Under the pieces are notes generated by a model. That model saw only the letters and a program-made list of their open reading frames with translations. It did not search any database and was not told the origin of the DNA. A stretch of 64,000 nucleotides of DNA from a virus, in the IMG/VR virus record IMGVR_UViG_3300045988_182459, positions 66,120-130,119 of that record; one strand, 5' to 3'. A program made the position numbers and the translations under genes. Numbering within the stretch: the stretch's first letter is position 1; the number at the start of each line of letters is the position of its first letter. Shown piece by piece: positions 16,694 through 59,391 of the stretch.

Positions 16694-16721
16694 TTGACGA
16701 AACTTGCGAACGGCATACAAT
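16694..16721 (+). promoter_or_regulatory. box promoter site 0: TTGACG-16-TACAAT with CTTGCGAAC in the spacer (weaker box variant)
   Basis: Read directly. Followed by the leader terminator at 16779-16812. Confidence 0.45.
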
Positions 16722-16778
16722 AAGTGTTGTACGACAGATAATAAACCGGCATCAACCATTCATAATCTGACAAATTCA

Positions 16779-16812
16779 GACAGGCACCAATCGGGTGACC
16801 TGTCTTTTTTTG
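16779..16812 (+). terminator. leader terminator with the shared TTTTTTTGTTGC tail
   Basis: GACAGG...CCTGTC stem then TTTTTTTGTTGC, about 40 nt before ATG 16852. Confidence 0.5.
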
Positions 16813-16851
16813 TTGCAAGACCGCGTAATGCGGAGAAAGTCGAGGAAAGCT

Positions 16852-17202
16852 ATGAACACCATTATGAACACCGCCGAATTCATCCGCGTTACCGACCTCC
16901 TGAAGAAGGAGAAAATTGCCAAAAATAGCGGCAACATATTTGCCGCTATGATGGCGATGCGCGAGAACCGCCCCGAAGCAATCTGCGCAGATGGCTTTAA
17001 GATGTCTATCCAGGCATCCGAAGACCACTACTGCCAGAAGGACGACGAGGGGAGCTACGTGAGCGTAGAAGTCGGGTTCCCGTCTCCGTCCGAGCCATTG
17101 CTCGACGAATATGGTGATGACGGAGTGTACGGCTATGTGCCGCTCACTGTTGTCGATGCCATCATCGCCAAGCACGGTGGAATCCTGCTCGATGAGCAGT
17201 AA
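16852..17202 (+). CDS. small protein of an unknown family (paralog of 60195..60521)
   Basis: Shares ICADGF(K/T)(M/L)SIQAS ... YGYVP(L/V)..VDA(I/V)(I/L)AKHGGI with the 60195 product. Confidence 0.6.
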   Translation: MNTIMNTAEFIRVTDLLKKEKIAKNSGNIFAAMMAMRENRPEAICADGFKMSIQASEDHYCQKDDEGSYVSVEVGFPSPSEPLLDEYGDDGVYGYVPLTVVDAIIAKHGGILLDEQ

Positions 17203-17351
17203 GCCACTCTATCCAATTCCAGCATGACATTCGGCTGCACGCCGTTTGTTCATATATGAAGCGGTTATCATTTCTCTTAATGAGAGCAAAAATGATAGCT
17301 GCTATTTTTATTTTACAAGCCTCGAAAATACGAGGAGAAAGAGAGTTTGCT

Positions 17352-18050
17352 ATGAACACCAACACTATCACTATCAATTCCAAGAAAGCTATCCCCGGCA
17401 TCAATGATGTGGCTACTAAGTGCCCTGCAGCAGCCAACATGTGGGGCAGCAAAAACGCTTGCTCTCCAAATGAGGTATCTGCAGGCAACAACAAAATGGC
17501 ATGGTTTGTCTGCCCCGATTGCAAACAGGAGTTTAAGGCTCCCGTTTGCAACGTCGTCAATTCTTTGTTGCATGACAATACCGGTTGCCCTGTTTGTGCA
17601 GGTCGCAAAGCTGTTTTCGGCGTCAACGATTTGGCGACCATGTATCCAAAAGCCGCTGCTATGTGGAGCGGCAAGAACGATTACGCCCCCAGCGAAATTC
17701 CTGCTCGGTCGTCCAGACGCGCAATTTTTGCGTGCCCCGATTGCAAACAAGAGTTTGTGACAAGCGTCCACAACATGACGCGGGCTATTGCATCCGGTGT
17801 TACTTGCTGCCCCAATTGCAGAATGCGAGGAAATACTATCGGTGCGATTTACAAGGATGAGTATGGTTCGCCAAAATCTGTTGGCACTACGATGACGATG
17901 AAGGACGGCAGCAAAGCCACCTGCACCGCTTATCATGGTGTCAACAACATCACCGTCGAGTTCGAAGACGGGTTCGTTCTGTACCATGCTCGCTGGAATC
18001 AGTTTATCCGTGGCGTTCTTCACCACGGTCAGAAAACCACTGAAGAATAA
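17352..18050 (+). CDS. zinc-ribbon repeat protein (DUF4379-like repeats G.NDLAT..P..A.MW....CPDCK.EF)
   Basis: Three CxxC-bearing repeats. A conserved 5' leader block is shared with the 18180 gene. Confidence 0.7.
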   Translation: MNTNTITINSKKAIPGINDVATKCPAAANMWGSKNACSPNEVSAGNNKMAWFVCPDCKQEFKAPVCNVVNSLLHDNTGCPVCAGRKAVFGVNDLATMYPKAAAMWSGKNDYAPSEIPARSSRRAIFACPDCKQEFVTSVHNMTRAIASGVTCCPNCRMRGNTIGAIYKDEYGSPKSVGTTMTMKDGSKATCTAYHGVNNITVEFEDGFVLYHARWNQFIRGVLHHGQKTTEE

Positions 18051-18179
18051 TAAAAAGCCATCTGATACGAAGTTGGCTTGTGAATGTGAATGTAGCAGCT
18101 ATCATCTTCCTCCAGTAGGGGGATGGTCGCTGCTTTTTTATTACAAGCCTCGAATGTTACGAGGAGAAAGAGAAAAATT

Positions 18180-57926: not shown

Positions 57927-58010
57927 CGCTTGCTATATTATTCGATTTCGGTAAAATATAAAATGTAAACAGATACTAAGAACCAGTAGGATTCACAATC
58001 TGTATGTTTA

Positions 58011-58050
58011 GCGGACTTATCCCATCGTGGGGTAGGTCCGCTTTTTTTGT
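58011..58050 (+). terminator. rho-independent terminator
   Basis: GCGGACTTATCCCATCGTGGGGTAGGTCCGC followed by TTTTTTTGTTG. Confidence 0.55.
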
Positions 58051-58067
58051 TGAAAGGAGAAGAATTC

Positions 58068-59228
58068 ATGAAAATCAAAAACAAGCTTTTACGGAGTACA
58101 GCGGCAATCATCGCTGCACTCTTTGCACTCAGCTTCACCGGCTGCGGTCAGAGTCCGATAACCTCGGAAAGTCCATCCAGCACCGGGGTCGTCTCAGAAA
58201 GCACTGCAAGCAGTGAACAGACGGCTGGCGGTTCGGTGGACGGCAGCTTTACTATTCACTTTTTAGACGTAGGACAGGCGGATTCAGCTCTTATCACCTG
58301 CGACGGCCACTCAATGCTGATTGATGGCGGCAATGTAGATGATTCTAACCTCTTATATTCTGTCATGCAGCGTGAAACCGATGGGCACCTGGATTATGTC
58401 GTTGGGACTCACGCGCACGAAGACCACATCGGCGGCTTGTCTGGTGCTTTTGAAGCCGTTACTGCGGACATGACTCTATGCCCTGTGACAGAATACGACA
58501 GCAAAGCATTTCGGAACTTTGCAAGCTACGCGGAACAAAAAGGCGGAGGCATCACGATACCGGATGTGGGTGAAACCTACACTCTGGGGGAAGCGAAATT
58601 CACGATAGTTGGTGTTAATTCTGTTCCCGATGATACGAACAATGCATCGATTGTTCTGCGCATCGTTTATGGGAATACTTCGTTCCTCTTTACTGGTGAT
58701 GCTGAACAGGAAGCCGAAAATGTGATACTTGCATCGGGACAAGACATTCAGTCAACGGTTCTGAAAGTAGGTCATCACGGTTCAAGCACATCTACCTCAG
58801 AGGCTTTTCTGGACGCAGTGAATCCGACCTATGCTGTGATTTCCTGTGGAGCAGGGAACAGCTATGGCCATCCGCATCAGGAAACACTCGACAAGCTGCA
58901 AAACAAAGGTGTTGAGGTTTATCGTACAGACCTGCTGGGCGATATCTATTGTACATCGGATGGCAAAGAGGTAAGTTTCACTACCGGAGAATATCATGAT
59001 GAGAATCGGATTGAAGCCGGTTCTGCTGCAGAGTCCAATGATGAACAAAACAGCAGACCTCTTGTAATAGACAAAACATACGTTCTGAACACAAGTACCA
59101 TGAAGTTTCACAGGCCCGATTGTTCTGCAGTCGAATCGATGAGCCAGAAGAATAGAATCGACTATATGGGTTCACGTGACGAGCTCATCCAGGAAGGGTA
59201 TTCGGCGTGCGGGATTTGCAAACCATAA
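58068..59228 (+). CDS. secreted lipoprotein with a metallo-beta-lactamase fold (ComEC-C-terminal-like hydrolase/nuclease domain)
   Basis: Lipobox LSFTGCG. MBL motifs HFLDVGQADS...DGG...GTHAHEDHIGG...TGDAE...KVGHHGS. RBS GAAAGGAGAAG. Confidence 0.7.
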   Translation: MKIKNKLLRSTAAIIAALFALSFTGCGQSPITSESPSSTGVVSESTASSEQTAGGSVDGSFTIHFLDVGQADSALITCDGHSMLIDGGNVDDSNLLYSVMQRETDGHLDYVVGTHAHEDHIGGLSGAFEAVTADMTLCPVTEYDSKAFRNFASYAEQKGGGITIPDVGETYTLGEAKFTIVGVNSVPDDTNNASIVLRIVYGNTSFLFTGDAEQEAENVILASGQDIQSTVLKVGHHGSSTSTSEAFLDAVNPTYAVISCGAGNSYGHPHQETLDKLQNKGVEVYRTDLLGDIYCTSDGKEVSFTTGEYHDENRIEAGSAAESNDEQNSRPLVIDKTYVLNTSTMKFHRPDCSAVESMSQKNRIDYMGSRDELIQEGYSACGICKP

Positions 59229-59246
59229 AAATTGCACCTGATTTAC

Positions 59247-59274
59247 TCGACAAGCTGTGCGAACTGACTACAAT
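59247..59274 (+). promoter_or_regulatory. box promoter site 10: TCGACA-16-TACAAT with GTGCGAAC in the spacer
   Basis: Read directly. Confidence 0.5.
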
Positions 59275-59350
59275 AAAAAATGTACGATAGATAACAAACA
59301 TCGAAAAAGGCATTCTGCCTTTCGTACAATTCACAATTCTGCAGACATAA

Positions 59351-59391
59351 GGCAGACTCACCGTCTTGGTGGGCCTGCCTTTTTTGTTTGC
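59351..59391 (+). terminator. leader terminator with a TTTTTTGTTTGCGC tail
   Basis: GGCAGACTCACCGTCTTGGTGGGCCTGCC plus a T-run, about 30 nt before ATG 59419. An extra hairpin AAGGCATTCTGCCTT sits at 59307-59325. Confidence 0.55.

Follow-up and report, generated by a model that had tools for sequence, protein, structure and literature searches.

A repeated promoter motif in the accessory region

We analysed a 64-kb segment of a plasmid that is filed as a virus in IMG/VR (record IMGVR_UViG_3300045988_182459, positions 66,120 to 130,119). This whole stretch is called the window below, and positions are counted from its first letter. Type IV secretion genes, including those for a coupling protein and a VirB4-like ATPase, occupy positions 1-16,600. 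The accessory region (43 kb) carries DNA-handling genes, candidate anti-defence genes and genes related to RNA-guided nucleases. Thirteen copies of a 28-bp promoter motif, the subject of this work, stand in front of these genes.

An original prediction had described an element-wide regulon of at least 12 promoters that share an invariant GTGCGAA(T/C) box between -35 and -10. We searched the window with a relaxed pattern (TYG-N7-KTGCRAAY-N5-ANNAT), the expectation being taken from 100 dinucleotide shuffles, and obtained 13 matches, all on the + strand, versus 0.02 expected. In a position weight matrix (PWM) built from these 13 sites, they score 28.9-40.4 bits and the next best position on either strand 12.1 bits, so that the shared box is real. 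The exact octamer GTGCGAAY occurs 13 times versus 4.9 expected. All 13 sites are located between open reading frames (ORFs) and face the next + strand gene.

The 12 sites listed earlier are all recovered, two of them with starts shifted by one position (30616 instead of 30617, 32965 instead of 32964); the site at 22878-22905 had been overlooked. The box is not strictly invariant, as 16694 has TTGCGAAC and 50766 has GTGCAAAT, and the spacing, given as 16-17 bp, is 16 bp at every site. PWM search detected no site among the secretion genes (1-16,600), so the motif is a feature of the accessory region rather than of the element in its entirety; "element-wide" was an overstatement. Nor did it detect an inverted motif copy on the other strand of the window. 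The promoters, named below by their first position (P16694 and so on), and two decayed copies are as follows.

16694-16721 (+), motif promoter with variant box TTGCGAAC; PWM 28.9 bits, pattern match
22878-22905 (+), motif promoter TCGACATTCGGTGCGAATCGTATATAAT; PWM 28.9 bits, 11/12 match to sigma-70 hexamers
30616-30643 (+), motif promoter predicted to drive an ORF-less structured RNA of ~130 nt (30651-30786) ended by the terminator at 30742
30783-30810 (+), motif promoter predicted to drive a HEARO-like RNA and an SPFH gene
32965-32992 (+), motif promoter without leader terminator, heading the 33063/VWA operon
36474-36501 (+), motif promoter with the top score (40.4 bits), directly 5' of the triple-HTH gene, without terminator
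37684-37711 (+), motif promoter with 33-nt leader, without terminator; the orthologue of the second gene of its operon has a precomputed AcrVA2-like match
40164-40191 (+), motif promoter without terminator, predicted to drive the TnpB-like gene 40226-41710
42680-42707 (+), motif promoter followed by a pause-like hexamer, two terminators and the ResIII helicase gene
50766-50793 (+), motif promoter with variant box GTGCAAAT, first of a tandem duplicate
50982-51009 (+), motif promoter, second of the tandem duplicate, before a GIY-YIG gene
52356-52383 (+), motif promoter before the UvrD-like helicase gene
59247-59274 (+), motif promoter heading the conserved GUACGAUAGAUA leader
41947-41974 (+), decayed motif copy, box GTACGATA, 12.1 bits
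57930-57957 (+), decayed copy TTGCTA-16-TAAAAT with the box lost and a decayed GUACGAU-type leader; terminator 58010-58042, before the MBL gene

In both decayed copies the box is lost and the -35 and -10 are retained.

The motif belongs to a family of conjugative megaplasmids

By its traits, the window matches a segment of a Hodor-type conjugative megaplasmid. Hodor megaplasmids were described from human gut (211-389 kb; GC 47.1% in group G1 or 44.6% in G2); they carry VirB4/VirD4 type IV secretion genes and a MOBH-like relaxase with a separate helicase adjoining, often contain TnpB, have been mis-filed as huge phages, and occur in ~9,300 human-gut and wastewater metagenomes (bioRxiv 2026, PMC12934698). 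Full published genomes average ~357 kb. The predicted oriT, upstream of the relaxase gene (PMC12934698), falls outside the window. The assignment is a match of traits, published Hodor sequences being compared by description only: contigs of 204-389 kb, origin in gut metagenomes, GC of ~47% (the value of the window itself), secretion genes, helicase, TnpB and filing in IMG/VR. A relative contig extends upstream of the window, where it has genes for a helicase, a pilin and secretion. The words promoter, regulat- and sigma do not occur in the preprint describing Hodor (PMC12934698).

Further relatives were found through the triple helix-turn-helix (triple-HTH) protein encoded at 36585-37052, which is listed in 1,845 blocks of an assembly collection. 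The retrieved contigs with this gene measure 204-266 kb and come from ENA metagenome assemblies, some of them labelled as human-gut metagenome-assembled genomes (MAGs). Many relatives, up to 389 kb, are classed as viruses in IMG/VR. With 25 kb as query, megablast found no match in phage and plasmid collections; the nearest records in plasmid collections are large Oscillospiraceae plasmids of Subdoligranulum (247 kb) and Vescimonas (142 kb), whose VirB4 is ~38% identical.

To estimate conservation, we collected IMG/VR loci by pattern and PWM search and counted promoters with flanks less than 70% identical as independent contexts. At least 234 sites with at least 93 distinct 28-mers were obtained in at least 75 such contexts; family fractions below refer to 75 contexts among the matches listed. 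The flanks of the 28-mer carry ~0 bits across these contexts. TGCGA is invariant in 75/75, and several positions outside the search pattern are conserved as well (C4 in 58/75, A7 in 59/75, a pyrimidine at 10 in 75/75, C21 in 53/75, A22 in 50/75). Collecting sites by pattern and PWM makes some of these figures too high, but it cannot produce the contrast with the flanks. The window consensus TTGC-N5-Y-GTGCGAA-YYGCR-TAnAAT agrees with that of the family, TTGC-nnAnnY-GTGCGAA-YYGCR-TAnAAT, and among the matches listed the box variants of family 28-mers differ only at G11. Judging from this pattern, the 28-mer is under purifying selection across the plasmid family.

Ten close relatives keep every window site and add one that the window lacks, before a restriction-endonuclease-like gene. 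The diverged MAG HRGM_Genome_2451 has 13-14 sites, all on one strand, with flanks unrelated to those of the window; its proteins are 53% (UvrD-like helicase), 55% (protein at 59419) and 41% (triple-HTH) identical to those of the window. Retention of the 28-mer where proteins are 41-55% identical and flanks cannot be aligned strongly supports the earlier proposal that these promoters form one co-regulated set. Sites are also present on a 351-kb contig with 45% GC, probably of the other Hodor group. A relative contig of 222 kb has a low-scoring copy of the motif (TTGCACGCCTTTGCGAGGTGCAGATAAT, 16.7 bits; positions 1187-1214 of the locus taken from it) at the start of its transfer operon, in front of the pilin gene and 10 kb ahead of the window-equivalent; it may place conjugation under loose control of the regulator that serves the other promoters. 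This locus does not include the predicted oriT.

We wondered if the motif also occurs outside this family. A scan of one genome per species gave at least 120 matches, with ~140 estimated by chance for the pattern, and is thus indicative rather than exhaustive. Among the matches listed there were single sites in unrelated phyla, orthologous cyanobacterial loci and one MAG repeat family, and clusters of sites were seen only on a Hodor-like MAG. Single high-scoring matches elsewhere (Butyricicoccus and others) were rejected as regulon members, since each site stands alone and no proteins homologous to those of the window accompany it. The 142-kb Vescimonas (Oscillospiraceae) plasmid, which carries prfB, purB, ligA and its own transfer genes, has no PWM match above 14 bits. 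A genome-wide scan had been proposed as the decisive check; as far as this one reaches, it is indicative of a motif confined to this plasmid family and not of a general host promoter.

Promoter anatomy

TTG (positions 1-3), A24, A27 and T28 do not vary, and neither does the spacer length of 16 bp. Such fixation at sigma-A spacing is the signature of a primary sigma factor. The hexamers match TTGACA/TATAAT at 8-10 of 12 positions, A/T tracts lie upstream, and T35 with a purine at 36 (70/75) fits a predicted start 8 nt after the -10. In its sequence the 28-mer is a promoter for the host primary sigma factor (sigma-A type), with -35 TTGC, a 16-bp spacer and -10 TAnAAT.

What is unusual is a contiguous conserved block at positions 10-22 (approximately -26 to -14), present in the 13 window sites as well as in the 75 family contexts. 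The block is not a dyad. Y-GTGCGAA-YYGCR is likely to be an asymmetric binding site for a plasmid-encoded factor.

Several other explanations of the motif were considered and set aside. It is not an extended -10, since the conserved G20-C21-A22 is not TGn. A promoter for an alternative sigma factor is disfavoured by the sigma-A-like hexamers and spacing, and tblastn with five sigma factors found no match in ~1.2 Mb of Hodor-related DNA, a search of limited sensitivity. A second, overlapping promoter using the hexamer at +2..+7 (see below) has no credible -35 at the needed distance. Frpo-type single-stranded DNA promoters are not supported, as no inverted copy exists on the other strand, and targeting of the box by TnpB/IscB-type proteins is unlikely, because conserved positions are interrupted beside any possible target-adjacent motif. 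To our knowledge, none of the familiar host sites (LexA/Cheo box, Spo0A box, Rex, CRP/FNR-type, cre, sigma-H, ECF) fits the 28-mer.

Leader terminators and a hexamer at the transcript start

The title of the original prediction placed an intrinsic terminator in the leader behind each promoter, and its text counted 8 of 12. This holds for 8/13 (P16694, P22878, P30616, P42680, P50766, P50982, P52356 and P59247), where strong predicted hairpins (dG -16 to -24) with T-runs begin 16-91 nt past the predicted start, and fails for P30783, P32965, P36474, P37684 and P40164. Three window units have two terminators each. The hairpin at 31139, formerly counted as a leader terminator, is the 3' end of the HEARO RNA and is without usable T-run; conversely, the elements at 22933, 50818, 50877 and 51034 were absent from the earlier list. 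The terminators are as follows, except for that of P59247, which is listed with its leader below.

16778-16813 (+), leader terminator after P16694, dG -16.6, tail TTTTTTGT
22933-22982 (+), leader terminator after P22878, dG -24.1, 20 nt past the predicted start
30742-30786 (+), terminator predicted to end the P30616 RNA, immediately 5' of P30783
42741-42775 (+), first leader terminator after P42680, dG -18.4
43009-43037 (+), second terminator, between a 66-aa ORF and the helicase gene
50818-50923 (+), two hairpin and T-run elements after P50766 (50818-50847, 50877-50915)
51034-51114 (+), two hairpin and T-run elements after P50982 (51034-51062, 51077-51106)
52407-52449 (+), leader terminator before the UvrD-like gene

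In the family, a terminator was detected within 160 nt in 38/75 promoters, versus 13/75 in reverse complements and 2/75 in shuffled controls. The leader hairpin of the UvrD-like gene is retained in relatives with compensatory changes at 4/14 pairs. In the short-leader class the hairpins begin 16-26 nt after the predicted start, which leaves no room for an RNA-based antiterminator.

A -10-like hexamer, TAnnnT, recurs at +2..+7 of the predicted transcripts and represents a candidate sigma-dependent pause element. It is present in five window units:

42716-42721 (+), TAAAGT
50802-50807 (+), TAGGAT
51018-51023 (+), TAAGAT
52392-52397 (+), TAAGAT, UvrD-like helicase leader
59283-59288 (+), TACGAT

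All five of these units have terminators (5/8 of the terminator-bearing ones). Orthologues of the helicase leader read TAAGAT, TAGACT and TAAACT, only the TAnnnT frame being retained. In the family, TAnnnT starts at position 37, i.e. at +2..+7, in 28/75 promoters; other nearby starts account for at most 5 promoters each, except position 46, which lies inside a common leader. The hexamer at +2..+7 is tied to terminators, as it is found in 26/38 terminator-bearing versus 2/37 terminator-less contexts (Fisher p = 8e-9). With the largest leader family excluded, the counts are 9/21 versus 1/36 (Fisher p = 2.5e-4).

The 66-aa ORF (42792-42992, +) between the two terminators of the ResIII helicase leader corresponds to a called 65-aa gene in relatives. 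Downstream of the P22878 leader terminator, the 11-bp-period repeat ACTTGCTAAGA (3.7 copies, 23023-23063, +) runs into the start of ORF 23058 and may be a protein-binding array.

A conserved leader and other RNA elements

One class of leaders has a common form, 5'-GUACGAUAGAUA(A/C)CAU - variable hairpin - UCGUACAAUUCACAAU - terminator, with the 5' end GUACGAUAGAUA and UUCACAAU as constant parts, and exists in 26 distinct versions in the family. The window holds one full copy and one shortened copy after P16694 (16729-16813).

59282-59389 (+), conserved leader RNA 5'-GUACGAUAGAUAAC..variable hairpin..UCGUACAAUUCACAAU, terminator 59349-59381

RNAalifold recovered only the invariant outer P1 stem of this leader, with zero compensatory pairs, and no leader gave an Rfam match at the E-value threshold. 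The conserved leader could have a function of its own, as a riboregulator or as a target for a protein. The ~130-nt RNA predicted from P30616 (30651-30786, +), which has no ORF, is a candidate small RNA.

Behind P30783 lies a HEARO (IscB omega-like) RNA (30881-31141, +; 91 bits, above the Rfam threshold), followed by the SPFH/flotillin gene. No IscB ORF accompanies it; two relatives have IscB-like ORFs elsewhere (RRXRR domain, in one also a weak HNH match). An HDV-like ribozyme of the F. prausnitzii type (35589-35658, +; 60 bits) is located in the intergenic gap after the VWA gene. Sub-threshold HDV-like copies (38 and 33 bits) occur in or beside the transfer-gene region, one intergenic (5165-5234, +) and one inside the predicted 3816-5123 ORF (3868-3947, +). 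These ribozymes may process polycistronic RNA.

Candidate trans-acting factors

Two window genes deserve attention as putative sources of a box-binding or accessory factor:

36585-37052 (+), triple-HTH protein, Mor/HTH_28/CD3324-like; candidate box-binding factor and regulon member
49128-50528 (-), XRE-type HTH protein with a beta' clamp-helix-like segment, truncated by IS200/IS605

The first contains three HTH repeats and matches Pfam Mor and HTH_28 and NCBIfam CD3324; the Mor match is to the C-terminal repeat (E = 1.7e-12). It also weakly resembles sigma region 4. Between 41%-identical orthologues the recognition helices are the best-conserved parts. In the structure model (pLDDT 76, pTM 0.35) the protein is helical throughout, and long helices connect its three HTH units. 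The model has weak fold matches to bipartite DNA-binding domains (Tc3, paired domain, Mu Mor and C), none of them significant. Genes of this family follow motif promoters in the window and in two relatives, and 109 paralogous gene segments were counted in ~1.2 Mb of related DNA, 76 of them with a motif promoter within 1.2 kb upstream. With the triple-HTH protein as query, tblastn against PLSDB gave zero matches, and a word-based search returned close relatives only. We regard the triple-HTH family as the best candidate for the box-binding factor; with its three HTH units, such a protein could recognise ~28 bp of asymmetric sequence.

The XRE-type protein has 628 amino acids in relatives (18399-20285 in one); conservation extends over the Hodor groups, with identities of 97, 56, 45 and 40%. 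Its residues 110-176 (a 66-residue segment) are homologous to the beta' clamp helices of RNA polymerase (E. coli 264-320; E = 4e-5 versus PDB beta' chains). Sigma region 2 and NusG dock on the clamp helices. In all cases the gene lies antisense to the regulon, and it is preceded by an extended -10 promoter of its own instead of the motif. This protein is a possible second regulator and may act as a sigma or NusG decoy. Its structure model is unusable (pLDDT 37.5). An IS200/IS605 insertion interrupts the window gene at residue 460/628, so this plasmid copy is without the C-terminal domain of the protein. The IS200/IS605 unit (47285-49054, -) consists of a Y1 transposase gene (48635-49054) and a 443-aa ORF (47285-48616) without Pfam match, presumed to be TnpB. 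On the other side of the gene, TTTGCC direct repeats with an 11-bp period (50738-50765, +) abut the -35 of P50766, and two copies precede P50982. Placed opposite the divergent XRE-type gene, they look like an extra operator particular to these two promoters.

Genes of the accessory region

Cargo includes NADAR (a solid match), the UvrD-like and ResIII helicases, GIY-YIG, TnpB-like and SPFH genes, an MBL gene with a faint Apyc1-like match and, in relatives, methylases. The AcrVA2-like label in the P37684 operon is a precomputed match on the orthologue and was not reproduced in the Pfam scan of the window proteins themselves. Anti-defence labels thus rest partly on precomputed or faint Pfam matches in relatives. 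The TnpB-like gene (40226-41710, +), directly 3' of P40164, is a predicted regulon member by its promoter and has no transposon context. A Y-family (UmuC/ImpB-like) polymerase gene (20068-21369, +) is preceded by an ordinary extended -10 promoter (19965-19993) from which the box is absent; it falls outside the regulon.

Mechanism

The arrangement of about half of the units recalls the promoters served by the Q proteins of phages lambda, 21 and 82 and by Pseudomonas AlpA. AlpA has its element between -35 and -10 of PalpB, with a -10-like CACGAT at -1..+5 and a terminator downstream, and Q proteins are alike (PMC9371919). The -10-like hexamer at the transcript start holds sigma and pauses the polymerase, which ignores the terminator once loaded (PMC9371919). 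Here, too, the sequence contains a spacer element in a primary-sigma promoter, a -10-like hexamer at the transcript start (TAnnnT, often TACGAT, at +2..+7) and one or two terminators 16-91 nt on, a wiring like that of lambda pR' or PalpB. Because all three cis-elements are at matching positions and many leaders are too short for an RNA antiterminator, we rank antitermination first and tentatively favour the following reading, without holding it probable in absolute terms. Sigma would hold the +2..+7 hexamer and the polymerase would pause; a plasmid-encoded factor bound to the box would load onto the paused polymerase and allow read-through of the terminators. Genes behind terminators would be expressed only with the factor present, whose action at promoters without a terminator would be limited to initiation. 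The factor would be a member of the triple-HTH (Mor-like) family, itself transcribed from motif promoters.

The lambda-Q-like mechanism had been one of two interpretations offered originally, and the hexamer linked to terminators strengthens it. A number of points speak against it. About half of the box promoters are without hexamer and terminator (terminator-less are 37/75 in the family and 5/13 in the window) and have the box no less conserved; it must therefore have a role at initiation as well, a role not needed in the Q/AlpA paradigm. In 12/38 terminator-bearing units the full TAnnnT is missing, and common descent within leader families explains part of the link between hexamer and terminator. 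Among 59 window proteins scanned versus Pfam, none was recognised as belonging to a Q, Q21, Q82 or AlpA family, and the model of the triple-HTH protein has no significant fold match among the PDB matches listed. The transcription start is itself a prediction, as are the identity of the factor and the sign of its regulation. It is also hard to see what signal would feed the circuit if a box promoter without terminator supplies the factor. Finally, known Q/AlpA systems serve one promoter per element in Proteobacteria, in contrast to at least 13 promoters within 43 kb of a plasmid of a Gram-positive host. The specific version in which a Q/AlpA-style switch has become a multi-promoter regulon, with more than 12 loading sites per plasmid, a triple-HTH loader unrelated to known Q and perhaps participation of the XRE-type protein, is rather doubtful.

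The second original interpretation, a repressor operator combined with attenuators, is a live rival with close precedents; we rank it below antitermination and consider it possible. The box and the adjacent -35 would form the operator of an autoregulated plasmid repressor, for which the triple-HTH protein is again the candidate, and the leader elements would be a separate layer. Promoters would fire on entry into a repressor-free cell and then shut down, terminators and hexamers lowering costly expression of nucleases and helicases. In p576 (pLS20 family), a strong and conserved sigma-A promoter with operators (EGeRS2) precedes four operons, including that of the regulator Reg576 itself (PMC8708921), and CUP elements of IncN plasmids are bound by autoregulated ArdK (PMC6289460). 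As in these plasmids, one promoter-region sequence stands before several operons of variable cargo that is mosaic between relatives and often anti-defence, and a candidate regulator gene lies behind one copy. The cargo described above (NADAR, the AcrVA2-like and Apyc1-like matches, methylases in relatives) and the HTH genes inside the regulon suit establishment. Equal conservation of the box with and without terminators is also in favour, as is the extension of conservation into the -35 (C4 over the sigma consensus A), A7 and Y10, suggesting a footprint that overlaps sigma contacts; moreover, the promoters look self-sufficient by their hexamers and upstream A/T tracts.

However, a repressor accounts neither for the joint occurrence of hexamers at +2..+7 and terminators nor for the strong terminators placed in tandem before some genes. 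A single site without palindrome, as seen here, is also uncommon among repressor operators. Operators differ as well: those of p576 are dual heptamers TTATCCCnnTTATCCC (TTATCCC) flanking the promoter and bound by the ribbon-helix-helix (RHH) protein Reg576 (PMC8708921), and those of IncN are 13-nt CUP cores bound by ArdK (PMC6289460), in contrast to a single asymmetric spacer site with multi-HTH candidates and an added pause/terminator module. The candidate proteins gave no RHH or ArdK-type matches, so homology to the operators and regulators of p576 and IncN was not found.

Positive control at initiation would mean a plasmid activator, sigma appropriation in the style of T4 MotA/AsiA or a plasmid sigma-70-family factor, which would define a temporal class of promoters. 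We consider this improbable. The long contiguous conserved block (~20/28 positions) is akin to phage class-specific promoters, the -35 is merely TTGC with a 16-bp spacer, the candidate protein matches the Mor activator family besides its weak resemblance to sigma region 4, and the related Vescimonas plasmid encodes several sigma factors adjoining its transfer genes. Yet the invariant TTG, A24, A27 and T28 point to the primary sigma, the sigma-factor search in Hodor-related DNA gave nothing, and decayed copies without the box retain -35 and -10. Phage Mu itself offers a likeness in the Mor match of the C-terminal repeat and in Mor and C among the weak fold matches. Mor and C bind as dimers to a dyad upstream of and overlapping the -35, at promoters without a -35. 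Activation of the Mor/C type was rejected here, as the site is in the spacer and has no dyad, TTG is invariant and the candidate has three tandem HTH repeats.

That the box is read by a host protein, or is a quirk of strong host promoters, seems very improbable. An invariant core across deeply diverged plasmids would be natural with a conserved host reader; against this stand the confinement of site clusters to a Hodor-like MAG among the matches listed in the species-representative scan and the Vescimonas plasmid, on which housekeeping-type genes are present and the box is not. Equally hard to credit is a portable promoter cassette without any trans-acting reader, similar by descent alone through duplication and exchange along with cargo: the tandem duplicates (50766/50982 and 30616/30783) and paralogous leader families would fit, but descent alone would not give both zero flank information in 75 contexts and a spacer as conserved as the hexamers, and decayed copies show that the box can go while -35 and -10 stay.

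Relation to known systems and significance

ConAn had also been named as a parallel. The likeness is that of a conjugative Firmicutes element with terminators to be read through, but ConAn is a large cis-acting RNA with a protein at the head of one conjugation operon (PMC8191782), and here many promoters are involved. In the short-leader class, the hairpins 16-26 nt after the predicted start make the leaders too short for such an RNA, and the sites are in the accessory region, not in the transfer operon. In RK2/IncP plasmids, many promoters share operators for the plasmid global regulators KorA and KorB. These operators are palindromes for dimeric repressors and are without leader terminators; we found no sequence or protein similarity to them.

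The concept of a plasmid regulon recognisable by a recurring promoter element is known. What appears new is a single asymmetric spacer site combined, in half of the units, with a lambda-pR'-like pause/terminator module in Gram-positive megaplasmids; no comparable system was found in the literature searched. The motif provides a precise handle on the switching of a large accessory block with candidate anti-defence, DNA-repair and RNA-guided-nuclease-related genes, and genes behind the shared promoter look centrally switched. As a compact and strongly constrained regulatory part, the 28-mer may serve engineering of gut Clostridia.

The regulons of p576 and pLS20 were delimited by promoter. If the repressor reading is true, the motif would likewise mark establishment and anti-defence genes in uncultured plasmids by promoter alone. 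If the lambda-like reading is true, promoter-loaded antitermination would extend from single late promoters of Proteobacterial phages to a many-promoter regulon of Firmicutes plasmids, with a new loader protein.

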